Shown one piece after another: positions 1 to 30,364 of a DNA stretch of 64,000 nt (the stretch's first letter is position 1; every line of letters begins with the position of its first letter). Both the position numbers and the translations under genes were made by a program. Origin of the DNA: a virus; IMG/VR virus record IMGVR_UViG_3300045988_176357, positions 96,001 to 160,000 of that record. One strand, written 5' to 3'. Under the pieces are notes generated by a model. That model did no database searches, had not been told where the DNA came from, and was given only the letters and a program-made list of their open reading frames with translations.

Positions 1-2
1 GT

Positions 3-398
3 GCTTATGGTTTCTGGCGTGTCGGACAGAATGAAGAGGGTGTTGTGATCAGTCGCAGACAGCTCACATCCGCTGCAGCCGATGATGTCAATCTCGACGA
101 GCAGTCTATAGTCTGCAACATCGACAGCATCTGCATTTCGCTTAAGACCACCGGAAGAGATCTTGTTGGAAACTCGAATATCTCTCCGATGCTCCTGACA
201 TTGCTTAAATCTACGCTGCTTACGAAACTTGAAGGTTTCCAGCAGTATGTTACGGAGCTCATAGGTCCTCAGCTGCTCAGCGCATCTCTGGATTCGATCG
301 AACAGGACGAGATACATAAGGATAGAATCTATGCGGACATGTCTGGATAGCCTCCGAAGCCGTTCAACAGATTCCATATGAGATTCTATATGAATTGA
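3..398 (+). CDS. Hypothetical protein, 5' partial. Frame open from the window start, one in-frame TAG at 348, ends at TGA 396-398 (TAG-recoded).
   Basis: Manual frame trace: no TAA or TGA until 396; the track ORF 45..350 is a TAG-terminated fragment of it. Confidence 0.4.
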
Positions 399-409
399 GG
401 TGACAGAGA

Positions 410-925
410 ATGAAAAGCGTTTTCAATAACCCGTATACACAGGCTCCTTAGGTATGGTCTGCACAGGGTGCGGCTGTCACCTGGGGACAGACATAGGCTG
501 TCGCACAGGCGAATCAGGCTACAGCGAATAAAGTGTTTGCTGCTCTTGGCGGCATCACGATTAATTATCAGCGTCCTGTCAGCACGAGATATCCGATTGG
601 CGGATCTGCTCCGATTCAGCTTATCGGAGCCCCTTCCGGTGTAGTGCAGCTTAATACGCTCATCGGACCGTCTACGGAACTCAATGACTTCCTGGATGCT
701 CTGGCAAGTGCCTGTAAGCCGATAACGATTATCGTTACCAACTCTTCCAGTACATCGGGCTAGGATTGTGCTGTCAAGTCTAAGCCTCAGGAAATTGTAT
801 GTAACGGTGCGATTGGAAGTCAGGTGCAATACAATCTTATCATTGCTTAGGGTGGCATGGCTATTGCACAAGGTACATTTGTACTGCAGTTCACTGAGAT
901 GAAGTGGTCCAGTACGAACAGCTGA
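410..925 (+). CDS. Hypothetical late protein, TAG-recoded (4 in-frame TAG).
   Basis: GAGGTGA RBS then ATG 410. Frame runs to TGA 923-925 through several TAG codons; the track ORF 533..763 is an internal fragment. Confidence 0.5.
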
Positions 926-997
926 CACACAGTACATTGATGTTCAATGATGCGCATGTAAGTTACTACATGCGCATTTTTTATATAGGAGCCAACC

Positions 998-1879
998 TTG
1001 AGCGTTCTTAACAGCTTCACTCCATAGAACCAGCCTCTCACGTATGTGGGCAGCTAGGTTATAGCTGGTGTCATATAGGCCTGTCTGCCGAATACAGGTA
1101 CAGCAGTGGTTCGCACCCAGTCGGCAGGTGTCGACAGACAGTTCTCATGTAAGATGTGTGGTGGCGGAGGTATCTTTGGCGCGAGTGTAGCTGGTCTGCC
1201 TGCTGTCGGTTCATCTGTCATAGCCTGGATAAATAAAGCAACAGGTAAAGGCTACATTCTATCTGTGAATCCAGGCGGAGGGTAGCCTAAATCATACAAA
1301 CTATTCTCTTTGCTGCATACCTACAGATGGAACACACCTGTAGGCGACCTGACTTTTTCCACATAGCTGTAGACACTGATAAGCAAGTATGCAAACAGTG
1401 GCGTGAATTCGACTCCCTGCGGTGCCACGTAGGACACATATCCCGGCGACCTTGTAATCGGTGATAAGTATGGACCGTCTGCGTTCTTCGGGAGAGCTCA
1501 GATAACAATAAAGGGTTCCGGACTTGCCTATACAGAGTTCTCCGGACTGGACAACAGTATAACAGTTGTAGCTTAGCACGCTTAGTTCGACTCTTTCAGT
1601 CAGCTGATATAGCACAGTACAGATATAAGCAGATAGCTAACAGCATCTGGTGCCAAATAGGGTCTTGGTGTCCTGCAGACTAATAGCAGTAAACCTGTTG
1701 AGAATAATCCAGGAGACGGAAACACACCGTCAGTTGACTACAGTGCGTAGTCAGGTGATCCTATTTACAGAACGCAGGAATTTAAGGGCGGACTTGTATC
1801 CGGCCAGTTCAGTTCGGTACTGTCTCCTCTGCAGGATTAGTAGTATCAGGACATGGATATACCTGTGCTTGCTACTAAT
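998..1879 (+). CDS. Hypothetical Gly-rich structural protein, TAG-recoded. The TTG start is tentative.
   Basis: Frame 2 is open from 962 to TAA 1877-1879 with many in-frame TAGs. AGGAG sits 6 nt before TTG 998. Confidence 0.35.
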
Positions 1880-1930
1880 CATGTATCATACGATGGGTAG
1901 ACAGAAACAGTATCGGCAAAAAGCATCAGA

Positions 1931-3502
1931 ATGATAAAGACACCTGATATCTACGCTCCTCAGCAGATATCAGACTAGACAGCGGCTTAGTTATCCTAGA
2001 AGTAGATTCCTAAGTTTCAGACTCCTCAATATACCTCGACAGATAAAGCGCTGCAGATGGATGCGCTGCTGCAGCAATCAGGAACACAGTACATACTTAG
2101 GAACCAACTTACGGATTAGCAGATTCTCAGTTTGTATTCCAACAATGTACAGTGTCTTGCGTAGCCTCTGACAGCCAGGATAACGGATTGGACAGATTCT
2201 GGACAGGCGTCACAGCAATAGTTAGCTCCATGTCAGTACGCATAGATAACGGATACGTATACAGGACAGCAGAAGCGAGTGTATAAATGCGCGTCATTTA
2301 TCACTCAATAGTAGGATGGGTCTATCCTTATCAAGGATGGTTGGGGAAGTTAGATACGAATGACCGGAGGCAACATCTACATATCCAGTGCGCTCGATAC
2401 CTTTATTCGTCCGGGTCGTGACTGCATAGGTTTGATACCAAGACGTATGTAGCTGGATGCCAATGGAGCAGCTGTTATCGCCTCCAAGAAGTCAGTAAAG
2501 GTAGCTGCCTAGGGCAGTCTGTATCTGTCTTCTGCTGTAGGAGGACAAGATGGTTACACGGTGCTGTAGAACAGATCTAAAACATCGTCTGCCGGTATGG
2601 TGATACGCAGTAACGGCAACTTATCTCTCACTTCATCCAGAGATATGTACATAGGACTAAACGATAAGACAACTACGAACGCAGGAGATAAAGCTACCAG
2701 AGGCTCCGGTTCGATCTGCATCGATGGAAGTGTGCTCATGCTCAATGCGGACAGCTATATGAAAGCCACATCCGGATCCATAGGCTTGTATGGATATTCA
2801 GGTGGTACAGGAGCTGGCGTCGTCATAACGCCTAACGCAACAAGTGTGCTGTCACAGGCTTTCTATGTTAATGTAGGATCTACATTTGTTGGAGCACTCG
2901 GAGGAAGGAGCACTGTAACTGTCGGCAATACTGATCAAACTTTTACAGTCAGTGGAGGTTCAGGTTCAGGTATCATGCATGTCAGAGGCTCTATACAATG
3001 CAAAGATATCACAGCTGACGGCACTATGTCTGTAAATGGATCTTTCGGAGCCGCCAGCTATATGGTACTGGGAACAGAACAGGTAGATATAATACCTAAA
3101 GTAACAATAGATTCATTGCGAGCCTTCAAGCAGTCCATTGCTCGTATATTCCAATATAAAATAGATACTCCATCTATATCGTATCCAGAACAGACACAGC
3201 AATGGTACAACGACAACTATATCTGCAGCAAATAGCTGAGCTTCACCTAGTCAGGTGTGTTGAGCTTTGGTGAATACAAAATGCCAAAGATGTGCTGGCA
3301 GACAAATACCTAGTCCGGTCAGATCTTTTAGCCTGTAATAACAATGGAAACAGGTCAGGATCAGCCGACATCCAAGTCATATCCTGGTAAGTCTGCATGG
3401 TAGGCTGGTACAATTTCAACTCTAGATTAGAATTACTCAGTCAAATACGAACTGCCGCTACAGGGCAACTATACAGTGAATACAGATAAGGAGGACCAAT
3501 AA
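1931..3502 (+). CDS. Tail-fibre-like Gly/Ser/Thr-rich protein, TAG-recoded (about 25 in-frame TAG in 524 codons).
   Basis: Direct codon-by-codon translation shows no TAA or TGA from 1880 to TAA 3500-3502. The track ORF 2597..3235 is a fragment; the GSGSG/TVTVGNT-type composition is typical of fibres. Confidence 0.55.
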
Positions 3503-4080
3503 TGTCATAGACGAACACTTAGAAAGAACTGCTTACATGTCCGTGCTGTGGAAAACCGACATTCCAGGCTCCGGCTAAAGTCGATGACTAGACTAAACAC
3601 AGGTATCTTGCATGCATTATATCAGGCATGCCTTACAAGCAGACTTACAATCTTTTCGATCGGACAGTAAAAATAACTGTTACATAGTTATCCCCTCAGG
3701 TGACTGATAAGATGGTTCGTCTCGGTGCGCTTACTTCCTTGTAGCAGGATAAAGACAGGAAATCCGTCTTATCTGATCTGTTATCAAGACTGTATAGACT
3801 GCTGCCTGTATAGAACATCAGCATCGTTACAGACACCAGTGTATCTGATTACCACGTGAGCTCCGTATGTCTGTAGATTCTGGAGAAAGCTCTGCAACCT
3901 GACTGTACAACACAGCAACTGTCTGAAATGTACGCACGGCTTGTCGATCCTTCCGTTGTTACATCATTGTCAGCAGGTATTCTCGACAAGGTTCTGGTTA
4001 CACATTCAAGAACCATGGAGCTTCTGATTTCCAGTGGATTTGATGATTCTTTTTATCAGGGTATTCCGCACGCCTGTTAA
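3502..4080 (+). CDS. Hypothetical late protein, TAG-recoded (9 in-frame TAG).
   Basis: AAGGAGG RBS. ATG 3502 overlaps the upstream TAA as TAATG. Frame is open to TAA 4078-4080. Confidence 0.5.
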
Positions 4081-4184
4081 TGCTATCTCAGCAACGGGAT
4101 ACCTACGGAGCAATAAAAAGATACGCATAGCGCCCAACGGATCGCAATTTCCTGGCTGTTAAACTGCTGGCATCCTCCACGTAG

Positions 4185-4373
4185 ATGCTGTTAAGGGCTG
4201 CTGGTATTCAAATAGCCGCATAGCTTAATATCTAGCTCAATAAGGGTGTGCCTGCTGCAATAAATGACATACTTGGAAGGGCGAGTAAAGAGCTAGAGAC
4301 AGACCTTACGGTAGACGCAAAAAGTATTTATGAGAACACATTACGCGCTGCCGGATTCAAATTACCATAGTAA
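4185..4373 (+). CDS. Small hypothetical protein, possibly a tail-assembly chaperone by position. TAG-recoded.
   Basis: Frame 0 is open from 4083 to TAA 4371; ATG at 4185; 3 in-frame TAG. Confidence 0.25.
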
Positions 4374-4392
4374 TAACAGTTGAAAGACGTGC

Positions 4393-6891
4393 ATGAGTCA
4401 ATAGTCAAATATACTTAATCAAATTCTACAGGTGCTGTCATCTTTTGTTCAGCGTCCGCAGACTCAACTTGGAGATGACTATTGGCGCAGTGTATCCGGT
4501 ATGCAGACAGGCCCATACTCAATGCATAGCCTGTTACAGTCCACAGTTACATCCGCACTTGGTCCGCTGTTTGGCGGAATTGTAAACAAGCTGATCATAG
4601 GCGACTAGTTTAACAGAGCCGGAAATTTCTCCAGTCCCCTGGCCGGTATGCTGCTTCCAACAAATGGAGGTACATACAGCGGCGCTTTTGCCAGTATGGT
4701 TCAAGATTCGATGCGGACTGCTGCATACTGGAGTAGACAGCAGAACTAGAATGCTTTGAAGCGTGATTTCTACAGATCGTATTTTAATACCTTGTATCCT
4801 AACTAGTCAAATGCGCAGATATAGCAGCGTATATATGGTGTATAGAGAAATCCAATACAGGCTGCAGGGCTTATACAGGCATTTGCCGATCCGTACGAAG
4901 TAACAAGGACAATGCAGGGCATGTAGCTGGCTCAGGCAGGTGTCCTTCAATGGAGTACAAGGCGAAACCCGTTAGATACAAGTGCTGTTACTCGTGCCAA
5001 TCAGTTAGCTGCAGGTATCAGTCAGCTTTCGCAGCAGGCACAGCGCAGAGCAGTACTCGGACAAGGGGAATCTTTTGGGGGGTTCTCAGGAGGAGCTGTT
5101 GCCTAGCTCGCAGGCATAATAGCCAATGCCAGTGATCAGTTCGGTAATGTCAGCGGACAGTAGCTGGCATCAAGCATATAGCGATTCAAGACCAAAGTAA
5201 GAGACACTACAAGAGCTCTGCAGCCGTTAAGAGATATCTTTGGTCAGGACATTCGCTCTATGGTAAATGCCATACAGGGATTTACAGGTCAGAATATATC
5301 TCAACTGAGTGTGTCTGCTGTACAGAACATTTCGACAAGAATCGCCGATATACAGAGGTATGCTCCAGGTGTGTCAATGGGTCAGCTGGCTGATATGGGC
5401 GGTGCAATGCGCCGTATGCTGGCTAACAACGGAATTAGAGGATATGCCGGATTGGGAGCTGGCGTGCTTGGCGTTGAAGTTGCAGGTATGCTTATTCCGG
5501 GCAATACGTCCTATGGTATGACTCCTTAGTAGTTCCAGCAGGGAACGCTTAATGCCTACGCCAGTGCGCAAGGCAGCCGTGGCGTTGACTTCATGTCGAT
5601 GGCTTACAGTCTGTGGAGACAGAGGAACAGAACAGGAACAATCCAACAGTTCAGAGACAGAATCAGCTAGGCACAGGCTAACGGACAGGATGCACTTACA
5701 GCTGCCCGTAACCTTGCTGGCGTAAGCTCCAATGGCTAGCTGCTGAGAGGTCTGTAGTACTCTGATTACAGAGAGGCTCAGATGTCCGGCGCATTTGCTT
5801 CATCCGGTATCAGATAGCAATGGAGACAGCAGCGAGACATCAAAGAACTGCAGTTAATGCAGACAGGCCGCTGGACAAGAGCACAAATCAGCGCTGCCAT
5901 GCGTTAGTTCAGCAACCCTTAGGTCATGGCATAGCTCAGTCGTTCAGGTAATGTTGACCAGGTTCGTGGACTGAACTAGACATCCAGACGCATCATTAAC
6001 TGGGCTGTAAGTACTGACACGAATTTCCTGGCAGGTGCACGCAGAGTATCTCAGATACAGTAGCAGTAGCAGTTCGGACGTACCATGTCCACTATACGCA
6101 ATACATTCAAAGACATGGATGCCACAGGAGGAACAGGTTGGAATACATTTTTCAACAGGTTCATGACAAATAACTGGGGAGATCAGTCCGCTGTCTATAA
6201 GATGTTTGCTCAACAGGTATATGGGTAGACAGATGAGGCAAGAATAACTGAACGCAATACACAGCTGCGAAGTGCTTTAGGTTCGTCAGGGATGCAGTAG
6301 GCACTCCGATACGGGTTTCTTGGAGCCGGAAGGTCAGATAGCGACTATAGACAGCATCTAAAAACGCTCACACAAGCCGATAAGAGTACTCAATAGTACA
6401 AATAGGCGCAGAGATATGTTCTGTCCGCAATCGCAGTAGGCTAGGATAAAAAGCTTAAAGATCTGGCTGCAAGTAAATAGGGGCAGGATGCATACAACGC
6501 TTTTGCAGCAGCCCTGATGCAGGCTGACAACTAGACCGATCAGACAAAGCGTGCTGATGCTGTTCTCACTGCCAGAAGCAACTACAGGTACAGACTGAAT
6601 GCTCTCAGCCGCAGAAACGCACTTAAATAGAGCACTGATTAGTAGTTCACACTGCAGACCAGAAGAGATATGTAGACTCTGCTTAAGGCTTAGTCTGAAG
6701 GCACTGTTGTCAACTAGCAGTATTTCAATACCAACAAAGGCAGATTCAAGTCAATATAGTCTTTCAGCTAGTACAGCAGACTCAGAGCAAAGCTGGGCGG
6801 ATCAGATACAAACAGTGATCTGGCAGGCAAGTTGAACAGTGTTCTGTAGCGTATAGCCAACTTCCTCAAACAGATAGCTTAGAAGAAATGA
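4393..6891 (+). CDS. Tape-measure-like large tail protein, TAG-recoded (about 45 in-frame TAG in 833 codons). Start codon uncertain; ATG 4393 or 4501.
   Basis: Directly translated frame 1 has no TAA or TGA from 4384 to TGA 6889-6891. The track ORF 5260..5529 is an internal fragment. Size, Ala/Gly/Gln-rich composition and position after fibre and chaperone genes support the call. Confidence 0.5.
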
Positions 6892-6904
6892 ACAAGGCTG
6901 CTCT

Positions 6905-7387
6905 ATGTCAACTACGGTTTTCCCTATAACAAGTTATATACAATAGACAAAGCTGAAAGGTTACACATACGTTACGCTGAGCCTTGGATCTAAATAGCTG
7001 TATATAGCTCAGGCTCCGATAATGGGCATATAGATATCCTAGCAGATAGACTACAATCTAATAAAGTCTCTTTCAGGCAACTTTGGTATGCTTACCTTTG
7101 AGGACCATCCTGTCAGTATAACTATCTCCGGTTTGCGTATGGCCTTGTAGCCTACGTGCAGCTTGTCTTCTGCTAACCGCAATGCGACCACTATATAGAG
7201 CTTGTCTAAACTTTACATGGACTATAGAGGTTCTATAAAAAATGCTTCCCAGCAATCGCTGCTCACTATAACTGTAGGTACAGATACATATAAGGGAGTC
7301 ATTGTCAGTTTACAGCAGAGTTCAGCCAGCTAGAGTATGCCCGGAGTTATGCAATACCAGCTGACCATGTACGGAGCCAGAATATGA
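6905..7387 (+). CDS. Hypothetical tail protein, TAG-recoded.
   Basis: ATG 6905; frame 2 is open to TGA 7385-7387; 8 in-frame TAG. Its stop overlaps the next gene's ATG. Confidence 0.4.
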
Positions 7388-9072
7388 TGACGTTATACAC
7401 ATCCGGCTCATTTGTACTTTGTGTCAAGGTGTCCGGAGCTGTAAAGTATTACGCTGTAAAGAACTTCTATCTTCGCAAGGCTAAAGGCGCAATAACTCAG
7501 TGCCGGGTGAGCCTTATGGATGTTACCTGGCAGGTGGAAGTCAGAAATCTGTCTACATATCCGAAACTGTCGGCATTGGCATAGCTGTATAACAGTGCAT
7601 GTCAGCCTGAAACTAAACCCATGTAGTGCCAGCTGCTGTAGTACAACTCCAGATAGAACAGTGGACAGCCTGTACAATGGTTTACAGGACGTGTGTGCGT
7701 CGTAACTCCGGTTCTGGCATAGCGCCCTGGAATTACATCTTAGTATACATGTTTCTGCATGGGAAAGGCGTGCTAGCTGATGTTCTCCTATGTCAGCGAC
7801 TATAAGTATGTGGATGCTAAGTCTGCAAACAATGTGCCATAGCTGTAGAAAAACGGCCTTATAGGAGCCAACGCACAGGCAACCAATATATTCAGCACTG
7901 AAAAACTCGATACAGCGTTGCTGATTTCCAACAGCGGCCAGAGCATATAGGCCGACACCGTAGATCAGCTTTTTACCAAAGCATTCAATTACTTGCAGTA
8001 GATGCGGGCAAAACTGGCTCTTTTCGCATAGACGCCTACTATAGACTTATCCAAATACATAACCTCTCAGTACAAGATAAGTTCTGTAATCAAGTAGGCT
8101 ATCAAGGCGCCTGTAGACTTAGGACATAGTAATCCATATCTTATAGCCTTTGATCAGATGTTCGCATCAGGTATCGATAACAGGCAGCTCATCGATGCTA
8201 TAATGACTACTCTGGCCGGTTAGCGGTTCCTGACAACTGCGCCTGCTTAGCGAACACTTCCCGACGCTTAGGACAAATTGTTTATCATCCCTAATTATGT
8301 ATTGCCTGTTTAGACTCAAGATGCCATCATAACACCGGAAGACATCAATCTTGTACAGGTTACCGCCAATCCGTTGTCCCATTTAAGTATACCTGATAAA
8401 TTGTTTGTCAACCTGACGATGCTGTCGGCTTTCGATATGGGAACAAGATTGATACAGAATATACCTGGATTATATGGTGAGTACGAAGCGGTTACACCAG
8501 CCTCCAAGATAAAGCAGGCAGGTGCTCCGTGGTGGTTACTTACCATAGCTGTATAGAAGTCCAGATTCAAAACATATAAAGCCGATATGAAGAACATTCC
8601 TGTTGGTCAGTCGGTTGTCACATAGATATAGTAGAACGCAAGCTGGGCAGACGGAGCTAAACAGATGTTTGATACATATGCAAAGACACTGTATTTCAGT
8701 ATGTATGCTGCCTAGAAGCAAGCTACTGTGAGTCTGCTGCCGACTGATAAAGCTAAGGATATGGACAGGTATATAGGTAAGTCCATAGCTTTACAGCTTC
8801 CTTTAGATCAACAGAATCTGAATGACAGGAAATACAGTAAATTCTTCGGTGTTCTTGATTCAGTTACATATTAGTACGGATGCTCTACATCACCTCAGCA
8901 GTCGTCATATCTGACAATAACGGCAAATGTGACGGCGCTGACTCCATAGAGCTCTGCCTTCGCCAAGGCTATATTTCAGGATTAGCGGACACCTCTGCTC
9001 TATTAGAAAAGCCTGGCTACATCTGATATGTACGATTACAATAACAGCTCTGATTACAGTGGTTTAGCGTGA
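7384..9072 (+). CDS. Hypothetical large structural protein, TAG-recoded (563 codons).
   Basis: ATGATG at 7384. Directly translated frame 1 is open to TGA 9070-9072. The track ORF 7384..7584 is its N-terminal fragment. Confidence 0.5.
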
Positions 9073-9080
9073 GGTTTAAG

Positions 9081-9854
9081 ATGCCGGGTATATTTGAACA
9101 AATTAAAGGTCTGAATACTTCTTCTCAGAATATTGCGCCTAAACCTGTAAAGCAGCCGCAAGAAGATATCGTACAGACCATAGCCGATTGGCAGAAGAAG
9201 AGCACGCCTGAAACCACCAAACAGATATTGGACTTCATCAGGCCGACTATCGACAGTGCGCTTCATACCTATACACCTGGACAATAGAACACATTCAGAA
9301 TAAAAGCTACATCCTATGCCTTGCAGAGTCTGCGTAACTACGATGTGACAAAGAAAGTGTCTCCAAAGACCTTCGTGTTTTCAAACCTTCAAAGACTCAA
9401 CAGACTCAGAAGGTAGCGTTAGAATATCATTCATATCCCTTAGAATCAGGTCTATATGAAACAGATGCTGGACAATAAAACAGCTTAGCTGTAGAGTGAC
9501 CTGGGAAGACCGCCTACTGATTAGTAGCTGAGCTAGGCTCTGTATATCTCCAAGCGCAAACTGGATAAGCTGCGTTAGCAGTCCTCTGTTACCATAAGTT
9601 AGACAATGTCTCAAGATCCGTAGGGACACTAGATGCTTGGAGCGTCTGATGTCACGGACAGGGATTACTATAATTATGTCTACTCATCTGTATCTCCTGT
9701 AGATAAAAAGATAATGTAGTGGACATCCGGGTACAAAACAAAGCCGCTGTCCAATAATCAGATAGCTGAGAAACTGCATATATCACCTGGGGCTGTATCA
9801 CAGAGAAAGAACAGGATACAGCAGCTCATGGGTTAGGTCAGAGGTCTCGTATGA
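9081..9854 (+). CDS. Sigma-70-family sigma-factor-like protein (region 2 and region 4.2 HTH), TAG-recoded (about 17 in-frame TAG).
   Basis: GAGG RBS then ATG 9081. Frame 0 is open to TGA 9852-9854. The C-terminal LSNNQIAEKLHISPGAVSQRKNRIQQL matches the sigma region 4.2 pattern. The N-terminal IADWQKK..ILDFIRPTIDSALHTY resembles region 2. Confidence 0.45.
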
Positions 9855-10255
9855 GAAAACTTATACAGGAAGGCGGAGAAAAGCCAACCGGCTGCTCATT
9901 GCAGCAGCACGATAAGTTTATCAGGTATGCGATGAACCTCCGTTTAGAATCTCTATAGGATATAGTGGACGGCAGTCAGCAATACCGGGCAACTTAGGCA
10001 CAGAAACCTGCATAGGCATAGCTGTACCTGACAAACCTGGATTAGATTCTGCAGCCTCAGTTCTTGTCCCATCTGCAGAGTAATAAGGATCAGTCTGCAC
10101 AGGTATCTACATTTTAGCAGTACGGCTAGATATTCCGTATAAGCAGAGACTTACTGACTTGCACTTAGAAAAGAAAATCGAGACTGCTTGCCGGTGTCCA
10201 GGAAACGCTTGGAAAAGCATGGGCTAACAGTACAGCTGGAGATGTGTACTTATGA
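9851..10255 (+). CDS. Hypothetical protein, TAG-recoded.
   Basis: ATG 9851 overlaps the upstream stop as ATGA. Frame 2 is open to TGA 10253-10255. Confidence 0.35.
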
Positions 10256-10260
10256 AGGAT

Positions 10261-10614
10261 ATGCAGTTCACGTAGCCTAAAACAATGCTTATATAGCCAC
10301 ATGTGCTTGGAGTAACTTCTGTACAGGGGCTTATTCTGTATCAGAAAATACTTGTGCTTATGCTCAGCTCGTCTTCCTCCAGCTACAGAGAAAATGCCGG
10401 AACACAATTGATAGACTTGTTATCTGGCTCGAATACGCCATCTGACTAGCTTCTTACATCTCTCGGTTCCAACGCATGTGCACAGGCGAGATCTCTGCTG
10501 GACTCATAGGATATTGACAAAATGGACTCACTTACAGCATCTGCAAGTAATGGAGTCTTAAGTATAACCCTGCGGCTCAAAGACGGCTAGACATATACTG
10601 GAGAACTGTCGTGA
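10261..10614 (+). CDS. Hypothetical protein, TAG-recoded.
   Basis: AAGGA then ATG 10261; frame is open to TGA 10612-10614 with in-frame TAGs. Confidence 0.35.
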
Positions 10615-10673
10615 ATTTAACAGAACCAACAAATACTCAATTTCAGCAGGCCTAGTAGACACTGACCAATTTG

Positions 10674-12158
10674 ATGCAGGACTACTCTCAGCAGCTTGAT
10701 GTAAAGAAAGCATCTACCATACGGTAGCTGTTGATAAGACCCTATGCATATGTATTCGCAAAGATAAATCAACTGATGTAGACATGGTTAAGAACTACGT
10801 CTGTAGGTTACCTGTCCTAGTCACAGCTTACACAGAACCAGACTGCGGATATAGTTGCAAGTAATTACTTTGTCACAAGAAAGCAGGGCACATACGCAAA
10901 AGGTGTTGTGACTCTTACCTGTACTGCCTCTTCTGTTCGAGTGACTAAAGGCGCGCAGTTTACTATAGACGGACATATCTTTGTTACTTAGAAGACAACT
11001 ATAGCCTCTGTGAATCCTCTATAGGATACTGAAGACATCAATTACACAAAAATGTACAGCATTAATGGCCAGTACAAGACCAATGTTCCTGTTGTTTCTG
11101 TTGTATCCGGCTACATGGAGATACCGGAAGGGGCTCTGGTCACAGTATCATCGTACATAGCCAATGTCAACCAGGCGTAGCTTACATCTCCGATAACAGG
11201 TGGAGCTTAGAGCTAGACAGACGCATCTATGATGAGCAGATGTAAGGACAGGTGCGGATCTGCTATAGGAACATTAGGAGCTCTACGGATAAAGATGTAG
11301 GAAGCTCCTGTACAGGTTATGAGCTGCAACGCAATAAGCAGCAAAGATCCTGGATGCTTCAGAGCCAGAAACAACAACCTCGATGTGCCTTATGGCGGCA
11401 TAGTTGATGTCTATGTGAAAACGGCAAATCAGACATCATTCGGTAAGCTTCTGTTCTAGTCTATGAAACATGACAGTGATGGCTACTATATATAGGTGTC
11501 CGCAGAAGATGACAGATAGATTGCCGGTTTCACACGCGTAACAAAGGTAATTTCTGCCCGGCAAGGCACATAGATCGGCACATACACTGTATAGTATGGT
11601 TCATCCAACACACTTGTATCTGCGTAGGCAGCAAGACTTACTGTATATCAGACAGCTAAGATACGCTTCCGCCAGTCCCTCGCAGCTTCGGTTCCGGTAT
11701 AGGTGACTGTGTAGTATGTAAACGGCATTACAGACCTGCAGTAGTATATGGACAGTTCTTCAGGCGCCTTCCTTGGACAGGATTGCCTTGTGAAAGCTGC
11801 TGTACCTGCAACAGTACATATATCCGGCTACATACACAGCACACAGCCGATAACATAGGATACCTTATAGTCACTTAAGGTTTTCATATCTCAATATGTG
11901 AACAGCAAACAAGTCGGTGACTATATATTGAATATGGCTTAGGTTGGCTAGGCTCTGCACCAGCAGTATCCTGACATCAATTTAAGACTTCCATATGGTA
12001 TTCAGACAAGCTTGCCGATGACTAATGGTGGCAACTATAACTTTACCACTTCTGACGGCTAGATCGACCTGACATACAGACAAGGTTTGTATATGTGGGA
12101 TCCTCAAGCATATTACTTCTCAACAGTGCCAGCATATATCACACTTGAGGTACTGTAA
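10674..12158 (+). CDS. Baseplate-like structural protein, TAG-recoded (495 codons).
   Basis: Direct translation: frame 0 is open from TAA 10548 to TAA 12156-12158; first ATG at 10674; about 30 in-frame TAG. Confidence 0.45.
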
Positions 12159-13483
12159 TGTAGAAATGGGCTAAACTTGTTCGCAGAATATGCGGATATT
12201 TCTGGACTACGGTATGGAAAGATACATGGCTGATCTAGCTGCTTGGCAAGTTCTTTCAGCACGTGTCTGGATAGGTGCTGTAGGATAGGCTGCTGCAAAT
12301 AGACAATCAGTTGCATGTTGCATATACGGTGCAGCCTGATAAGTGGCACCCTGTGCGTATACTGGTTGATGCTTAGACATAGAGCAGCGCTGTAATACCT
12401 ATAACACAGTTCGTAATTGGATCATCTTCCATAGGGCAAACTGTGTAGGGCACTAAGTACAGTACTTTGTAGCAGCTTGGTATCCCGATAAAGATACAGA
12501 ATAAGGTGGACACACCTGATATCCTGCTCAATATCGATACCGACTATACTGTGCAGGACGGATGTATTAAGTTCAACCAGCCGTTGGATCAGATCGGATT
12601 CCGATCTACTGTAGTCACTGTAGCCGGTTAGATAAAAGTCTGTTACTAGCTGTGGGGCATCTACTAGAAGTATCAGACACTGAGGGATGCTTTTACCGGT
12701 ATCCTGTAGGTTCCGAATTATTGGTTGTATAAGTATCCGGGAGCTGTGGAGGCGGCCTGGAGCATAAAGCTTAACGGCAGCAACAAGCGAGATGTTCTGC
12801 GGTTACTTGGAGCTGTCGGACAATGTCCTGTAGCTTGGCAGTAGGGCACTGTATCAGATGTACAAGGCAGCACAGTCATTATAGGTGACCACACATATAC
12901 CGGTGAAGGTTCTCCGATAGTTACTAAAGGTCAGTATGTGCTGAAGGGTTAGCCTTTATTTGTCGCAGCTGAAAACGCACTTGACTATCCGAGAGTGATA
13001 ACATGGAAAGATACCATTCCATCTGATATCGCGAGCATACCTGTTGTTACAGATGCCGGAGTGCTTACAGCTTCAAACAGAGACGGACTGAGTCCTGTAA
13101 ACAATGTACTGCCGCTAACAGGTTAGAACTACATACAGTATCAAAGACTGTGTGCATAGTTAAATGCTGATCTGAATATACCGTATATACAGCTTCCAGC
13201 CAATATGAATCCAGCGCAATTCCTTCTGTCCACAGTATGGAAGCATTCTGGCTTTATCGTTGTAGCTCCGTCTTCCAACTACAAAGACATGTGTATAGCT
13301 GCTCGTGTGATTGTTTAGAACACAGCGCTAGGTGCTATACCTATAATATACAGATATGCTGCACAGACATACGTTACGATATAGCCTGACTTACAGGTGA
13401 CGTCTAAAGCGATAGCTTATTACAGTGAATCCGTGAATAACGGCTTGCAGTATAAGGAGAGGTACAATGACTTTGACAAATAA
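12158..13483 (+). CDS. Hypothetical structural protein, TAG-recoded (442 codons). A TAG codon immediately follows the ATG.
   Basis: ATG 12158 overlaps the upstream TAA as TAATG. Directly translated frame 2 is open to TAA 13481-13483. Confidence 0.45.
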
Positions 13484-13782
13484 AGGATCTGAGCTGTTGT
13501 TGCGGGCTCTTCTGCAGGCAGTCAACTCTTGTACAGGACTTACAGATACAGGTAAAGTAGTAAGGAACGGAACTGTCTCTGTTGAGGATAACTCTATAAA
13601 ATGCTGCTTCGATACATACAAATTAGATCACTCGTAGATTGAATAGCAAAAAGATAAAATAGTACATATATGTCTGCTGGATGAAAATAGCTGGTAGCTT
13701 GCCCGCGTGCCGGTATAGCCAACGTGCAGACTCAATGGTGCTGGACTTATATTCAATCTGAGCATGAATATTGGAGGCTTAC

Positions 13783-15366
13783 ATGGCTGAAAGTTACATG
13801 GTACCCAAGTACACATAGGGGATGGCTACTGTTGATAAGCTCAACCAGCCTCTTGACTACATATAGACAGCACTCAACGATATAAGTCAACGTGTTGACC
13901 AAATTTCAAATAAAAGTGCTGTCATACAGTGGTAGGCTGTGCTCGACGCATCTGTACAGACAGGAGACCTTGTATATTTCGATTCTGAAGGGTCGTCAGC
14001 ATGTTTCAAGCCTGCGAAAGCGGCTCTGTTGGGCATTCCCGGAGCACAAGGGCAGTCTGTATAGGCGCCGCAGAGCCGAGTATAGGGCATCGTGCTTTCC
14101 GCAGACCCTGCGGTTATATTGCGATCTGGATACTACTAGTCACCCATCATCTAGGCTACATTAGGTACTGGAGCTTAGGCTGGAATCTATTATTTATCTC
14201 CTTAGACAGCTGGTAAAGCTACAAAGACACCGGGATGGAATCTCAGGCAGCCATGCCTAAGCTATTACGGGGACGGCAAGTTCAGTCTGTTCTCGAACTA
14301 TCTTGCACATGACAACCATCATCACGCAAGTTTGGTTATAGGGTAGTGGCAGTAGCGCGCAGCGTATGACGGAGAGTACACGGCACAAGGAAATTACTTC
14401 TATAAGATATCTGATGCAGACATACTTGGACAGCTGTCCGCAGATACGACCGCTGTGTTCTACAGAGGTCTTCTCAATACTACTGATTTTTCCTTCCAGC
14501 CTGATGCTGTATGGTGTACAGCATCTGATGCACCGCAGGCTGGATAGGTTGTCGTGTTCAATGACTATCCGTTCGCCTATGGGGACTCTGTTGTAAGGAC
14601 TGTAAGAAGTTCTTCTCTCAGTGTGAATTCTCTTAACGGCACATATGAGATCAACCTGCCGCAGTACGTAAAGAACAAAGTTGTTGGTTCGGCCACAGCC
14701 GTTGCCGATATTTCAGGCAAGAATATTTCCATAACACCTATCGTTTCCAGGCTGTATGCAGGTATGGGCATCAAAGTACAGAAGCTTGGATTGGGTATAT
14801 ATCAGATTTCGTCTGCTCAGCACGACGGAGCAAACATCGCCGCTTCTGACATGCGTATGAACGGTACACAGAGAGTTGCGGACGGACTGCTGACGTATAC
14901 TGTCTTCCCGAGATCAGCGACAACCTCGTTCATCATATCTACACCTGTTACGTATTCCGGATAGAACCTGAAAGGACAGACCAAAATATGGTTTACTACA
15001 AGAGGTCCCGGATCAGGACGTGTCAACATCTCTGTGTACTGGATACCTGTAGACACGTCTGGCACTGAATATACTACTATTCCAGGAATACACATAGGCG
15101 ACACAACTGCAGTGTTCTCCAACACCAGCACGTCTATGCTTGCTTACACATAGACAGCTTACATCGGCAACTTTGATCTGAGTACACATGGCACGTTGCT
15201 GGCAAAGGTATAGGCTGTAGCGCCCGGCAGCGACATGTATGTGTATCAGACAGGATTCAAGACAACCGCTGTTGCATAGGTGCAGGAAGACGATACATCC
15301 GATGCTGTATCTCAGGATATCCTCGACCAGCTCGCCAAGGTGCTCACCTACAACGCTAATTACTGA
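13783..15366 (+). CDS. Tail-fibre-like protein, TAG-recoded (527 codons).
   Basis: GGAGG RBS then ATG 13783. Frame 1 is open to TGA 15364-15366. The track ORF 14554..14964 is an internal fragment. Confidence 0.5.
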
Positions 15367-15374
15367 GGTGGTAA

Positions 15375-16307
15375 ATGACAGACTATTAGTGGATGAGCCA
15401 TATGGCCGCCCAGACATATCCTCTGGCGGATTAGGTAACAGGACTGTCTGTTACAAGTCAGCTGTTGCCTAAGTATCTGATTTTGGATATGCGCATATTG
15501 GTCCCTGAAGCTACCGGAACTGTAGACGGCGATGCTTTTTATATAAGCAGAGTTCAGGACTAGGGAGCATCTCTGTCTATCTACATAGGATACAACGGTA
15601 TCTAGGTTGCTGTAGGCTCAGGGATTCCAAAAACACTCACTATGACATAGCCTGCTGTGCAGCATTGGTACACATTGACTGCACTATAGGGAGGATCACT
15701 GTCGTGGGCAGCTAAACTTACAGGCTCCATATGTGTAGGACCTACGAATACATATGATATCGGCACACAGGTATACACAGCGAGCAACACTAAGCTTAAC
15801 CGGAATGTCATCAGTGTAATAGGTAAACTGACATATCTTTAGGCGATAAAGGTTAACTAGGTCTATTATGATGGAGTTGTGTAGATCCAGGCAGGATAGG
15901 GGGTCAGCATATCCGCTGCTGTTGAAGGCTAGGTAACGACACTTACTATATCTGTCGACCAGACTTATGTTACCTAGACTGTGCAGTAGTCTGTGGTGCA
16001 ACAGCTGAACGCCTCGACAGGAGCGACACCCATCACCTCTATCAACGGCGTAACTCCTGACTCCAACGGCAATATACAGATTTCAGGTGTTGACTGCGTT
16101 GACGTTGTCGCACAGGGACAGGGTGGGCTGATTGTGAAAAATCCATGTTCCAAGCCGTGCTGTGATTCAACCAATATGTAGAGCACAGTGATTGCTTTGT
16201 AGGCCTTGAAGCAGCAACAGAGTGTCCTGCAGAGTTACTTCACAAATCAGGCCAATACCATTAATTATATGCAGGCGAATTTATCTACGCTAATGAACCA
16301 GCACTGA
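15375..16307 (+). CDS. Hypothetical tail or fibre-associated protein, TAG-recoded.
   Basis: GAGGTGG RBS then ATG 15375; frame is open to TGA 16305-16307. The track ORF 15993..16181 is a fragment. Confidence 0.45.
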
Positions 16308-16308
16308 T

Positions 16309-17607
16309 ATGATAACAGAATTGCGCATAGCAGGATATCCTGTAAGTACAAAATACTTAAAGATACAGGGAAAGGATGACCTTAAGGTCACACCAGGAAC
16401 ATCCGGACCGAAGATATCTTATATATTGACTAAGCAGGAGTCTGACAGTTAGTCGGAAGCTCCTGTCGTGCCCATTATAACAGGATCTTACTTAAGGACT
16501 ATAAATGGAGTGTCGCCTCTGTAGTAGGGACAGTTCATGCTGATGGGCGATTACTGTACGTCTGTTGTTTAGGGCGGTGACGATTCAGATCCATAGATAT
16601 CCAAAGTGTCTGGAGCAATAAAGATCTTCGATGGCTGTCAGGCATGCGTCGACTGCAGTTCCCAGTGGTATGTGCAGTCTATGCTCCAGTAGTGTATGTT
16701 GTGGCTTGCTGGGTTGAAGGATTGTATCCTGTACTATGAACCGGCTGCAGCCAGGCTCTGGAACTAGATGCTGCAGAAACGAGTATTGTAGATATAGAAC
16801 TGCGGCAAAAGCGAAATAGATGCGGAGTACAGACAAAGAGAGTTCGGCAAGGCTGTAAAGCTTTTGTATCAATATAAAGCAGTTGTCGCCATGTGGAACT
16901 ATCTGGTGTTTACAAAAGCCAGATCGATAGAAGTGGTTCAGGCGCCTGAGACACACCTGGGCTTTATAATGCAGTCAAAGCGAATCATAGACTTCTGCGA
17001 TGCCGGGCTGAGTACTGTCACACTTCACTTAAAAGCGACATTATAGTCAGGACAGACACAATCTTTCCTTGCGGCGCAAGGCAGAGCAATGCTGCTCTCT
17101 GTTACCAAAGTCACATAGAACACTTACATCTAGTACGGTAAAGATACCGGAAGCCTGGGCGGAGGGCTTGATACAGGCAGCCTCAGTTGTGACATATCGG
17201 CTACGAACTAGCCTGTAATAACGTGCGCTATACAATTCTTCCCGACAAAGTAGTGCAGAGCTGTGTTCTCAGGATCCATTAAAGTGCTGCCTGTCATTGT
17301 ATAGGGAGGCAGCGGCAGTGACGCACAGTTATATTCCAGCCCGCTTGTTGATCTCGGAACATATGCTGAAGCAGCTTATGATGCTACTGATATCGACAAA
17401 GGATAGCTGACAATGACAAACAGGTGGCGTATATAGCTTGCCTGGTAGTTCACACAGGGAGATATGGTGGTCAGCAAATAGGACACCTAGTAGGTAACTT
17501 ATTTCACATCAGGATTTGGTTTGTATCCTTCCAGATCTGATTCAGGGTCTGGATCGGTAAACGTCGGAGACGATGATACCGGCGGTGGCGGACTTATTTA
17601 GATATAA
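16309..17607 (+). CDS. Hypothetical structural protein, TAG-recoded (433 codons).
   Basis: ATG 16309 lies 1 nt after the upstream stop. Frame is open to TAA 17605-17607. The track ORF 16864..17046 is a fragment. Confidence 0.45.
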
Positions 17608-17623
17608 TCGGTGAGAGCAATAC

Positions 17624-18574
17624 ATGAGCTTTGTAACGACAGAGACAAGCGCACGTACAGATACGTACCCTTTCACATGTTAGGTGCCTTTCGGCAATTA
17701 CTTTATATAGTCGATAAAGTTAGCCCTTAAAGATGTACAGCAGCAGCCTTCTCTTAACATATTGACATCTAAACAGGGCTAGTGCTCGATAACACTGATG
17801 TCGGGTTCTGTAGTGTTGGCTACTGTATAGTATGCAGGCAATCTGTGGATGACTTTTGATACAGCACATGCTTTCGGTTTCGTTAAGTTGCGTGTCAGAC
17901 CTTCTCACACTATAAATTTTTCAGGAAAGCTGCCTCTCCATCCGCTTACATATACATATAGCTACAACAATAAAGGTATCACCAGTATTCAGGCTAACGA
18001 CGACGTGAAGCCTGTCGGAGATACATTAAACATTACTGTGATAGGATCTATCCAGTGTGATAAAGACTAGTTAAACTTTACGAACAAGGGTGCTTTAGGT
18101 GGACCTGACTGGCCTTTCAGTATTCAGAGATTTGACATGGCAGGCAATGTTGTCGGCTATCCGGGAACTCTTACAATAACGCCTGTAGTTAAAAACTCAT
18201 AGCTCATAGCTAACTAGTATGTTGGACAGAATATATGGTATGGTGACACTTACGGTGGTGTAACCCATGCGTATCTGCCTAGTGCTGATTATATGTATAT
18301 AAGACGTACGCAATAGTCATTGTACAACTTCATATAGACGCCTATAGAATCCAATTAGGTAGTATATACAAACACATAGGTAGGAAAATATATACAGAAC
18401 ATCAATGGGACTCAGACGCAGAACCTGAACATAACAAGTGTATGCGAGCAGATATCTGTTACAGGACCCGTTGCTGTTGGAGACTCTGTCTATGTGATCT
18501 ATGTCTCATCCAATCCGGGCTTCCCTACATGCGCCTAGTATGACAGTGATTCCTTGTCATCTACTGGAAGCTGA
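17624..18574 (+). CDS. Hypothetical protein, TAG-recoded.
   Basis: ATG 17624; frame is open to TGA 18572-18574. The track ORF 17849..18070 is a fragment. Confidence 0.4.
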
Positions 18575-18599: not shown

Positions 18600-19370
18600 A
18601 TGAACATTCTTAATGCAGATACGCAGCAGGTGCGGACATTTTCGAAATATCCGTTCGATTAGGCTTCCACTATGCAGATATATAACTACATAGTAAAATC
18701 TACGTGGATACCATCTGTAGGTATTTGTGTATAGCAGGCTAGATTCCCTCTATATATAAGCGGTTTTACACACAACAGCGCCACTACATGCAAGTTACAT
18801 ATAAGTGACAATACAGCTACTGAAATAGCTTATGCCGTACTGTACAGATAGCGCAGTACGGCCCAGACAGCAGGTATATAGAGTGCCGATAAAGTTGTAG
18901 CTTCGCTAGTGGATGTATATGGACATGTCTGTGGGCAATTAATGTATGATGTATAGTTTTCCGGATTCATTCTGAATGTGCTTACTACGGAGCATCTCGG
19001 ATAGATAGCACTGAGCGCGAACAACCTCATACTGTCTCCATAGTGTATAACATGTACACATACAGTGGGGTGTAAACAGGTCATATTTAATGGAAAATAC
19101 AAATATAAAGGGAGTACAACTCTGATTTTCCAGCGCAATGTGACACTCACCGACAGCGGAATACTATCAACACCGTCTATAAATGTGTATGGGGATAAAG
19201 ATACCACAGATGTATCCGCCATTGCATATCAGGCACCGAAGTACCTCAAATATGTGAACGGTAAAGACCTGTCTGGCAGCCATGTGCTGATTAAACCGAT
19301 TGCTCTTTCAGATCTTCGAGTGATAACCAACACAGGAACTATAACGTTCTCAGGGGTACGGAATGCTTGA
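18600..19370 (+). CDS. Hypothetical protein, TAG-recoded.
   Basis: AGAGG RBS then ATG 18600. Frame is open to TGA 19368-19370, the same end as the track ORF 19065..19370. Confidence 0.45.
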
Positions 19371-20127
19371 TAAACTGTACAATATATCTGCTGTATATCC
19401 ATTCTATAACCATACTGGATTGTCTGATACAGACAGACAGACAGCCGGATGTATAGCTTGCTGCAGAATATAGATACGAAAACCGAGACTCAGGCAATTT
19501 TTAGCAGGCTAGGATTACTACAAACCTATTCAGGATACAAATATTCCGACGCAGATAGTTCTTGAAAGAACAGAACCGGGCAAGGCTGTATTTAAAGTGC
19601 AATACGGTTACTATGAGTAGCCGTGGTACATAACATGGACAAGGGATGGGACTTGCTCAGGCACTTTTCTTGTTTCATGCTATATGTAGCTGACAGCTTA
19701 GCTGCCTACATATACAGGCAGCTCTTTAATTCTCCTTAATTAGTGCATGATAATCAGAACGCCTGGAGTAGTGCTGCATGCCGCATCGGATGGAATCCAA
19801 TAGACAGGCGGGATATATCCTAACCAGACCATGTATACGAATGTCAAAGGTTTCTGTGACGGATATAACTGTCAGGTAAGTGCATAGGATTCCAATTTGA
19901 TTATACTGTCGTCGGCTGCAGCAGGTAAAGGGAGACCTAAATACAATGATGTGTGGGGTTCAGACTCACAGGAGTCTTAGTTACCAGCGGAAGCTCCGAC
20001 AGGTGTGCGCACTATAAACACAAGCACGGGAAGCGTAACTTTTCTATCTATAGGCGATGTAACGCAGAACGTTGTTGTTACTTAGTAGGATGACGAAGTT
20101 ACAACTACAGTACAATTAAGTATCTGA
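19363..20127 (+). CDS. Hypothetical protein, TAG-recoded.
   Basis: ATG 19363 overlaps the upstream gene end by 8 nt. Frame is open to TGA 20125-20127. Confidence 0.4.
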
Positions 20128-22981: not shown

Positions 22982-23243
22982 TCTACTACAGAATATCAAA
23001 TTCCATGCCGTAGATGCACATTGTTCCGCTGTTGCTTGTATCGGACTGTGATTCAGAGCTCTAACTGTAGCTTATGCTGTAGCTGGAGCTCTGTGACTAT
23101 GAACCTGACAATGACTGCGAATATGACACAGAGTCGGAGCACGCTGTTCCTGTTGTAAACTAAAAGGCAGTGGCCTGTGCAGAGTTCAGATAGTTCAGAG
23201 CTTTAACAAGCGCTGTTACACCTGTCTTTATTCCGTTTATAGC

Positions 23244-23486
23244 ATGCTGAGCCTGGAAGTCGTTACGAACTCTGAGCTTTATACTGTCTGTGCGGAAATA
23301 CGCGTAATCATCCATAATCTCGGACGGATAATCCTACATATCCACAGGATCTGCAATATGACTGAATCTGTAGTCAGGCTACTTATTGAAGTTCTTCGGC
23401 AGCTTCTATATTACAAAAACATTTGTATCTACGTTACAGGCGGAGGTTGCTTTGCATTCAATATCAACAGCCGCCTTATATCCTGA
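23244..23486 (+). CDS. Small ORF with no TAG, embedded in the recoded region.
   Basis: ORF-track entry ending in TGA. The absence of TAG over 80 codons is unusual here. May be spurious. Confidence 0.2.
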   Translation: MLSLEVVTNSELYTVCAEIRVIIHNLGRIILHIHRICNMTESVVRLLIEVLRQLLYYKNICIYVTGGGCFAFNINSRLIS

Positions 23487-23815
23487 TCGCTGATATCTTT
23501 TGACACTGAAGTGCAGAGTTATGTTCATTGCTGCTCCGTAAATGTGACGCCGCCAATTGTAATTGGCAATTTGAAATTCTATTTAAGAAAAGCATTAAAG
23601 GCTTTATTATATTGTAAGCGCAAAGCAGCTGCTTTCAGTATAGTATGCTTATTTACCTGTTTATGCGGGCACGTTGGACAGCCCTTGATAGCGGCTGACG
23701 CAGCTGCCATAAGAGGGAAGGACTTTAAGTCCATATTGAGTAATTTTTGCTAATCAGGTGTTAAAAACATTTTGCGCTCCTTATGAGCTGGGCGCGTTCA
23801 ACTGGAAAGAATAGA

Positions 23816-29960: not shown

Positions 29961-30364
29961 TCGTTATCAGTCGTCTTTATGTCTCCGGACTTCCTTTAGA
30001 TAAACTCGAGCAACTGGCAGATGAAATCAGCCACAAAGACTTCACAGACGGCTGTGTCTTCGCATGCTCTGTCCACAAGGATGCTGCTAGGATGTACATA
30101 GACACCTTTGAAGGCGTCGCTACCGACCAGATGGACGATGATCTCAACGAGATTGGCAGACTCGCGCTGAATTATGGTTGCCGCATTGCAGGCAAAATCT
30201 TCCAATTTGGTGAATTTGCAGTATGGTCCGGAAACTTCAATGATGTGAATGAGATCGAATGGGTTGACATGACTCTGTTCATGGAACTGCCCACACACGA
30301 GCTCAGAAAACTTGCAACATATGTAGGTGCCGACAATGTCGTACAAGCTCAACACAAATGTTAA
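29957..30364 (+). CDS. Hypothetical protein.
   Basis: ORF track; start overlaps the upstream stop. Confidence 0.55.
   Translation: MIVISRLYVSGLPLDKLEQLADEISHKDFTDGCVFACSVHKDAARMYIDTFEGVATDQMDDDLNEIGRLALNYGCRIAGKIFQFGEFAVWSGNFNDVNEIEWVDMTLFMELPTHELRKLATYVGADNVVQAQHKC

Follow-up and report, generated by a model that had tools for sequence, protein, structure and literature searches.

The 64,000-nucleotide (nt) stretch of viral DNA analysed here (IMG/VR record IMGVR_UViG_3300045988_176357, positions 96,001 to 160,000; hereafter, the window) raises the question of what a sigma-like gene at 9081–9854 (+), placed among structural genes and interrupted by TAG codons, may be doing in a phage that also carries a canonical sigma factor gene in its early block. 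A first-pass annotation of the sequence had assigned both genes to the sigma-70 family, and profile, Pfam and fold matches bear this assignment out. The gene at 9081–9854 encodes a divergent three-domain (sigma-2-like, sigma-3, sigma-4) sigma-70-family protein that belongs to a large unnamed phage family, comprising at least 649 clusters at 50% identity, and members of this family occupy a fixed tail/baseplate slot in large myoviruses resembling the Salmonella phage Arash, 1–2 kb upstream of the baseplate wedge gene.

The first step is the reality of the gene. With TAG taken as a sense codon, 9081–9854 contains 257 open codons followed by a TGA stop, and the interruptions of the frame are all TAG, neither TAA nor TGA being found inside it. 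The need for TAG decoding, stated in the first-pass annotation, stands, whereas the count of about 17 codons given there should be lowered to 15 (codons 69, 112, 114, 121, 136, 138, 148, 149, 152, 166, 174, 181, 184, 213 and 252). Under the standard code the longest unbroken piece is 68 codons, so that only a 68-residue fragment of the product could be made without suppression. A GAGG Shine-Dalgarno site, read from the sequence, lies at 9071–9074, 6 nt upstream of the ATG at 9081, and overlaps the TGA (9070–9072) of an upstream gene encoding 562 amino acids (aa), which suggests that the two genes may be translationally coupled; the ATG of the next gene (9851–10255 (+), 134 aa) overlaps in turn the TGA of the sigma-like gene (ATGA, 9851–9854). 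A search of 5.8 billion proteins revealed 53 full-length homologues (248–271 aa, 29–95% identity), whose alignment has a mean column identity of about 52%, and comparison with a 94%-identical contig (locus L001; the near-identical contig used for comparison is the 95-kb IMG/VR contig IMGVR_UViG_3300045988_177579) showed 12 synonymous differences and one non-synonymous difference within the gene. A relative with a 56% identical protein (locus L002) has 19 TAGs in this gene, and the gene of a more distant relative (locus L004, a 96-kb Logan contig; 29–33% identical) has none and reads through under the standard code. The open frame, the Shine-Dalgarno site, the homologues and the 12:1 ratio of synonymous to non-synonymous differences confirm the gene that the first-pass annotation had proposed. 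A reading of 9081–9854 as a fortuitous open frame, or as a pseudogene that 15 stop codons interrupt, might be suggested by the 68-codon limit under the standard code but is vanishingly improbable; it is refuted by the TAG-only nature of the stops, at a density equal to that of every other late gene, by the 53 full-length homologues, some of them in the standard code, by the predominance of synonymous differences, and by the presence of a phage tRNA(CUA).

With TAG as sense, the window falls into two halves: positions 1 to about 29,000 contain long open reading frames (ORFs) with one TAG per 15–35 codons, and the part from about 29,000 to 64,000 contains essentially none. TAG makes up 45% of the glutamine codons in the 9081–9854 gene; the share is 36–72% in the remaining late genes and about 0 in the early ones. 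At its other end, the recoded late block is bounded by the gene for the large terminase subunit TerL (27116–28936 (−), 21 TAG codons). The 15 TAG columns hold mostly Q, E or D in the homologues, including the most distant ones, P0050–P0053 (among these four, the standard code without TAG was checked and confirmed for P0053, from locus L004, only), and between the window and L002 TAG swaps with CAA, CAG, GAA and GAT. Judging from these alignments, TAG in 9081–9854 is read as glutamine, which fits the Q/E/D residues of the standard-code homologues, and the phage is of the gut type in which TAG is reassigned to Gln in late genes. ARAGORN found no tRNA in the window; a suppressor tRNA with the anticodon CUA is present on the near-identical contig (L057:2636–2709 (−), where L057 is IMGVR_UViG_3300045988_177579, positions 1–18181), with a tRNA-Met beside it (L057:2717–2792 (−)). 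Window position 1 is equivalent to contig position 7787, and the suppressor tRNA lies 5.1 kb upstream of this point. The 15 TAGs, the 68-residue limit and this tRNA agree with the earlier statement that the late gene requires amber suppression. The tRNA pair lies on the strand opposite to the late genes, next to a TAG-free minus-strand ORF (contig 2111–2590), forming with it a small standard-code island in the first 3 kb of the recoded block.

The product of 9081–9854 is, with high confidence, a sigma-family protein. AlphaFold2 modelling, made for the 95%-identical homologue P0001 (predicted local distance difference test, pLDDT, 71.6), predicted helices at residues 26–114, 121–167 and 193–256 and a disordered segment at 168–190, and the modelled layout is that of sigma-2, sigma-3, region 3.2 and sigma-4. 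The sigma-2-like domain (residues 26–114, 9156–9422; all the domains are given on the plus strand) is delimited by the predicted helices and by profile alignment to region 2 of SigB and SigA; it includes the stretch YD..K..SPKTFVFSNLQRLNRLRRQRQNIIHIP, which aligns with regions 2.2–2.4, and the region 2 landmarks FD/YD...K/G...T-aromatic...R...P are kept. The sigma-3 domain (residues 121–167, 9441–9581) is recognised by Pfam Sigma70_r3, with E=1.6e-4 and 22.2 bits for the window protein (gathering score 25.3) and with matches to 46/46 family members tested (best E=4e-9). The linker at the position of region 3.2 (residues 168–190, 9582–9650) has pLDDT <50 and variable columns in A1 and A4, the latter being a broader profile composed of the family, its standard-code relatives and gp10 of phage Arash. 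The sigma-4 domain (residues 193–256, 9657–9848) is matched by Pfam Sigma70_r4 (E=4e-3 for the window protein; 22/46 members, best E=1.3e-5), and its profile aligns to region 4 of SigA. It includes the helix-turn-helix (HTH) of the region 4.2 type, LSNNQIAEKLHISPGAVSQRKNRIQQL (9747–9827), the most conserved stretch of the family; this C-terminal peptide, quoted in the first-pass annotation as region-4.2-like, was found at residues 223–249, and the alignment with SigA supports its interpretation.

Searches with whole proteins and profiles led to the same family. PHROG 351, "RNA polymerase sigma factor", matches the window protein with E=3.4e-7, and the NCBIfam matches are to sigma models only. 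A PDB search with the 46-member profile returned only sigma factors, the best being Staphylococcus aureus SigB (8x6g_H, E=2.6e-10, profile positions 22–201), with a further alignment to sigmaF over positions 82–251; the A4 profile aligned to SigA (E=1e-20) over positions 65–242, i.e., from region 2.2 to region 4.2, where the region 4 part takes in lsp.er..l..ryGl and the HTH columns, and to SigB over positions 9–244. An hhalign comparison of the family with the early sigma of the same phage gave a probability of 93.8%, the alignment beginning in region 2.2. A Foldseek search of the AlphaFold2 model against the PDB gave 102 significant matches (E≤0.001), and the best 50 of these 102 were all sigma factors, with probability 1.00 over about 250 columns. 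The earlier remark that region 2 of the late protein is weaker than region 4 was apt: Pfam r2 is silent, while the profile and fold comparisons favour the region 2 assignment. An HMMER search of 1.84 billion representatives yielded 649 clusters at E≤1e-30; no dedicated model for this family turned up in the four libraries searched, as Pfam, PHROGs, NCBIfam and PADLOC-independent checks gave generic sigma matches only.

Some features of the protein weigh against its assignment to the sigma factors. Pfam Sigma70_r2 matches neither the window protein nor any of the 46 homologues, the tryptophan pair of region 2.3 is replaced, and the window protein alone falls under every curated cut-off (Pfam r3, 22.2 vs. 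25.3; TIGR02937, the superfamily model, 25.0 bits vs. 42.9). In the HMMER test with TAG translated as Q, which the first-pass annotation had proposed, sigma domains were accordingly found at the level of the family, and the single window sequence stayed below threshold; sigma-70 membership holds for the family profile, not for the window sequence alone. A protein with a sigma-derived fold and no role in initiation, such as a decoy for the host core late in infection, a plain HTH regulator or a DNA-binding virion or assembly protein, would explain the divergence of region 2, the loss of the melting tryptophans, the scores below the curated cut-offs and the location of the gene inside a structural operon. 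This reading is nevertheless improbable, as the three sigma domains stand in order and with the usual length across at least 649 clusters, and one family member, that of locus L027, passes the TIGR02937 cut-off with 44.5 bits. The tryptophan pair is missing in group 3 and group 4 sigma factors too.

The genomic surroundings narrow down what such a protein could do. The first-pass annotation placed the late gene among structural genes, and this is borne out by the baseplate wedge (gp6/J-like) gene at 10611–12158 (+) (PHROG 6, E=5.7e-23), a conserved downstream neighbour in relatives, and by the above-mentioned TerL gene on the minus strand; these two are the only late-gene neighbours that Pfam and PHROGs recognise, and the labels of tape measure, sheath and tube proteins for other neighbours, which would have only a positional basis, are not claimed. 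Genes from 998 to 13483 are tightly packed, with stops overlapping starts. A strong intrinsic terminator (949–978 (+)) lies 5' of the operon segment containing the sigma-like gene, directly after a 173-aa late gene, and abuts the next gene, leaving no space for a promoter in between. The packing and this terminator place the sigma-like gene on the tail/baseplate transcript; it would, therefore, lack its own promoter and be co-transcribed and translationally coupled with the baseplate genes, and its product would be made only late, after the phage tRNA(CUA) has become active. The position of the terminator is conserved in L002 (about 1270–1305), and it probably attenuates the downstream tail/baseplate genes, including the sigma-like gene.

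When IMG/VR was scanned with the family alignment, 24 loci were found, on contigs of 24–224 kb with a GC content of 40% to 70%. Apart from the window's own contig, the sigma-like gene is written in the standard code in all of them, and in nearly all the wedge homologue follows it at a distance of 1–2 kb, while a homologue of the window gene at 998–3502 precedes it. As this slot is found in the standard-code loci L004 and L006–L028 and in phage Arash, the baseplate-operon position is old and independent of recoding. The sigma matches of Salmonella phage Munch and other jumbo phages were also examined for the family context; these genes sit among small early-type genes and were rejected as instances of the same context.

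Promoter searches covered the late genes from several sides. A scan with the sigma-70 consensus found fewer sites than in shuffled sequences, and no shared motif emerged from the k-mer enrichment in 23 intergenic gaps, from inspection of 160 nt upstream of 26 genes, or from a repeat search of positions 1–30,500; the equivalent gaps of L002 and L004 have in common only the conserved terminator after the upstream gene. The regions upstream of 13483–13783 and 22982–23815, suggested earlier as places to look for a late promoter motif, were included and likewise showed none that is shared.

The other sigma gene of the phage is unambiguous. Its frame begins at 30327, with a likely start at ATG 30336, and the gene at 30336–31136 (+), written in the standard code with zero TAG, is a canonical RpoS/RpoD-like member of the sigma-70 family: Sigma70_r2 (E=6e-15), r3 and r4 each score above the Pfam gathering score, TIGR02937 gives 87.8 bits (cut-off 42.9), PHROG 351 matches with E=5.5e-54, and the nearest NCBIfam models are RpoS/RpoD. 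The first-pass annotation was, thus, correct in regarding it as an unmistakable sigma-70-family gene. A sigma factor encoded in the middle of a late operon cannot switch that operon on; the early sigma would be the natural activator of the late genes and is the better candidate for turning them on.

In view of these data, the proposal that the gene establishes a further tier of late transcription, coupled to the recoding switch, is not sustained: the gene is ordinary within the recoded block, its slot predates recoding, and neither a promoter of its own nor a shared late motif was found, so that its recoding seems to mirror its position in the late block rather than a dedicated switch. A wider version of this idea is that the protein, once amber suppression permits its synthesis, redirects the host RNA polymerase within the same cycle to very late genes (e.g., those of lysis) or feeds back on the late operons. 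It would suit a sigma-family protein that can be made only after suppression and in which conservation is highest in the DNA-reading regions 2.4 and 4.2, and the presence of the early canonical sigma makes a two-step cascade plausible, like that of SPO1, in which gp28 is followed by gp33/34. Nonetheless, the gene lies mid-operon among tail/baseplate genes with no promoter of its own, so the protein cannot be needed for that operon; no repeated motif precedes the late genes; the arrangement is identical in non-recoding phages and, therefore, unconnected with the code switch; and phage particles contain the Arash homologue in abundance. Action within the same cycle is less likely than not, yet a serious competitor of the interpretation put forward below.

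The cultured relatives came into view through the wider family. A megablast search with 20 kb and a tblastn search with the window protein gave nothing among GenBank phages; relatives appeared there only with more distant family members as queries. Gp10 of Salmonella phage Arash (OQ632216), annotated as "RNA polymerase sigma factor RpoS", is related to the window protein with E=1e-7 and to other members with E-values down to 5e-26; its identity to the window protein is about 21–25%, with lengths of about 235–257 aa. In Arash, gp10 precedes the wedge homologue gp13, and the TerL proteins are related as well (27% identity). A homologue of gp10 with 44% identity occupies the equivalent genome position in Vibrio phages D69, D181 and D148. 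In purified Arash particles, Gp10 was detected at 100% coverage, with 24 unique peptides and 467 spectra, together with the phage RNA polymerase proteins Gp206 and Gp216 (PMC10585845). Spectra per residue, calculated from the published counts, are 2.0 for the sigma-like Gp10, 2.3 and 2.0 for the RNA polymerase proteins Gp206 and Gp216, 2.4 for the helicase Gp217 and 1.5 for the portal protein, while evident carry-over enzymes are represented mostly by 2–5 unique peptides, with 11 for one ribonucleotide reductase. These values suggest a virion-borne complex, and the presence of the Arash homologue in virion preparations points to a role different from the late tier proposed earlier.

The detection of Gp10 alongside a phage RNA polymerase brings up the possibility that the family serves as the specificity subunit of a phage multisubunit enzyme of the Arash gp206/gp216 type, the two being packaged together. 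Gp206 is a beta-beta' fusion with the ADYDGD catalytic motif; locus L027 contains an ORF for a 2102-aa beta-beta' RNA polymerase (L027:11445–17753) 2.4 kb downstream of the sigma-like gene, and in 3300032156_000001, as in Arash, both genes share one contig. The near-equal spectra per residue of Gp10, Gp206, Gp216 and Gp217 in Arash particles also agree with this possibility. On the other hand, co-occurrence was confirmed in only 3 of about 25 genomes (Arash, L027 and 3300032156_000001), as assessed from the best 80 of more than 536 polymerase loci and the best 120 protein matches, and the 95-kb contig, rebuilt whole from six overlapping IMG/VR loci, contains neither a beta/beta' homologue nor a DxDGD motif. 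The canonical sigma of the window phage, moreover, implies the use of the host core. It has been reported that phages with their own RNA polymerase use non-sigma specificity subunits and that phages without one encode recognisable sigma factors (PMC7598289). A role as a subunit of a phage polymerase is distinctly improbable. The 95-kb contig lacks a terminal repeat, and neither a capsid nor a portal gene was recognisable on it, so it may be incomplete; the contigs of relatives at 53–56% identity measure 129–183 kb.

The fused beta-beta' polymerase family (ADYDGD/NADFDGD; L027:11445–17753 and L030:5094–9671, the latter being Arash gp206) is itself very widespread in IMG/VR, where more than 536 loci match, and Arash gp206, which adjoins the portal gene, encodes the protein that virion mass spectrometry detected in the greatest abundance.

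The interpretation put forward here, tentatively and with somewhat less than an even chance of being right, is that the protein, made late, is associated with the virion or at least acts once the late operon has been switched on. It would bind an RNA polymerase core as a sigma factor, accumulate with the virion, and probably in it, and exert its effect either as the next infection begins or in the final moments of the present one rather than on the late operon that encodes it; in the window phage, the partner would be the host core, since the 95-kb contig yielded no phage RNA polymerase. A more specific proposal, which is rather doubtful as it stands, is that the family represents an initiation factor of the sigma-70 type, produced as part of the virion and delivered to the next host for the very first transcription. 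Such a factor would be co-assembled with the tail/baseplate or with the DNA and would work with the packaged beta/beta' polymerase where one is present (Arash, L027), or else with the host core, as in the window phage; in the TAG-recoded clade, the first transcription would then rely on a protein that could be made only after the code switch of the previous infection.

The case for virion association has several weak points. Its basis is a single proteome, from a relative about 21–25% identical to the window protein, in a study that called 116 of 272 proteins "structural" and whose authors allow for carry-over (PMC10585845), and in a study of a Twort-like phage a sigma factor found by virion mass spectrometry was judged to be a contaminant. 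Arash has its own virion RNA polymerase, whereas none is detectable in the 95-kb contig, so the partner enzyme may differ. The promoter searches described above also revealed no promoters on which the late sigma-like protein would act.

Comparison with known systems places the protein between several categories. Arash gp10 belongs to the same family, has a similar length and occupies the same slot upstream of the wedge homologue; Arash differs in its standard code, its Salmonella host and its virion RNA polymerase beta/beta' proteins, no counterparts of which were found for the window phage, and gp10 is known from annotation and virion mass spectrometry alone, its sigma function being putative. 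Group 3 sigma factors (SigB/SigF/SigG, FliA/WhiG) share with the window protein the three domains, the length of about 250 aa and the lack of region 1.1, and they provide the best-scoring named groups and structures (8x6g_H SigB, 1l0o_C sigmaF, 1rp3 FliA, TIGR02980 and TIGR02479). The window protein, however, scores far below the group 3 subfamily cut-offs (26.4 vs. 234.35 for TIGR02980; 22.5 vs. 189.6 for TIGR02479), its region 2 is unseen by Pfam, and its gene lies in a phage baseplate operon.

The phage factors T4 gp55 and SPO1 gp28 and gp33/34 are likewise phage-encoded and, like the window protein, expected to retarget the RNA polymerase core, and two sigma genes in one genome recall a cascade. 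These factors are expressed before the class of genes that they activate, from genes that are not part of structural operons, and T4 gp55 is a minimal region-2 protein. The window gene, in contrast, lies inside a late operon and encodes all three domains; PHROGs and GenBank phage searches gave no sequence match of its product to the T4 gp55 or SPO1 families, and the features expected for a factor of the T4 gp55 or SPO1 gp34 type were not seen, the gene being part of a late transcription unit with no promoter of its own and the late genes having no shared motif.

In code 15 gut phages, the late structural genes are recoded, the replication genes follow the standard code, and a suppressor tRNA is present (bioRxiv 10.1101/2021.08.26.457843); the window phage matches this pattern with its recoded late genes, standard early block and tRNA(CUA). 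The term "sigma factor" has 0 occurrences in that work of Borges et al., and a transcription-factor gene in the recoded block is not discussed there (bioRxiv 10.1101/2021.08.26.457843). The virion RNA polymerases (vRNAPs) of N4 and of phiKZ/AR9, gp66 of crAss-like phages and the RNA polymerase of P23-45 fused to the tape measure are encoded, as is the window gene, among late structural genes, and, if the Arash mass spectrometry holds, the sigma-like protein would be carried in the particle for transcription in the next cell, like the machinery of these phages. The cargo in all these cases is a polymerase, whereas the window candidate is a sigma-70-family protein whose packaging is putative, and the specificity factors of virion polymerases are not sigma-70 homologues (PMC7598289).

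Late-gene recoding, phage sigma factors and the sigma annotation of the Arash homologue are already known; the noteworthy points are that the family is large and unnamed, that it keeps to one slot in the baseplate operon, an unusual setting for a transcription factor, and that it may be present in virions. The locus also demonstrates that gene calling with the standard code conceals regulators, and not just structural proteins, when gut phages are recoded: here an entire sigma factor goes unseen unless TAG is read as Gln. To our knowledge, no sigma-70-family protein has previously been described as injected transcription machinery. If the virion association of the Arash protein is real, it would be the first known injected protein of this kind and might partner a phage multisubunit RNA polymerase; if the window protein is merely a second late sigma factor, the finding is an ordinary one, and the link to recoding follows from the position of the gene in the late block.

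Several other features of the window were recorded. The 1.4-kb segment (25327–26700) that separates the plus-strand late operon from the terminase unit on the minus strand contains no convincing ORF and several strong hairpins; no Rfam match and no tRNA were found in this segment, and the Rfam search of the whole window gave no family. Clear AGGAG/GGAG Shine-Dalgarno sites occur throughout the window, e.g., upstream of 28973, 38674, 45468 and 59473, and L002, a locus with a close homologue, belongs to a METAG-labelled record (TONG22-1); taken together, the two observations are suggestive of a host relying on Shine-Dalgarno sites, e.g., a Firmicute rather than a member of Bacteroidota.

The early block contains two paralogous transposase genes of the TnpB/IS200-605 type (34658–35791 (+) and 43225–44340 (+); PHROG 506, E=1e-88). 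The approximately 100 nt upstream of both are near-identical and end in a promoter-like site, TTTACAG-N17-TATAAT; a near-identical IMG/VR contig is about 3.2 kb shorter between the TnpB anchors, so the element content of the two genomes may differ. An 832-aa ORF at 47917–50415 (+) matches a DnaB-like helicase in its C-terminal part, and its middle part (about residues 200–560) matches families that are found inserted into terminases and primases as well; the ORF probably encodes a replicative helicase with an intein.

The early standard-code region also contains an expanded gene family of at least five paralogues with long Asn/Gly-rich, pentapeptide-like repeats (NSGNxN), at 52672–53943 and 56700–57677 in the window and at L031:16106–17134, 17127–18035 and 19104–20024; they have a common C-terminal module, ...DWPKQRQ/EQLK..LPNFD..FEEISGI, and each is followed by a small conserved ORF. 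Two further genes, at 37525–38565 and 41601–42734, encode leucine-rich-repeat-like proteins with repeats of about 22 residues, LTSLKGAPKEVGG.F.C..N, and a common N-terminus, MKYKKGEFGYWWT.

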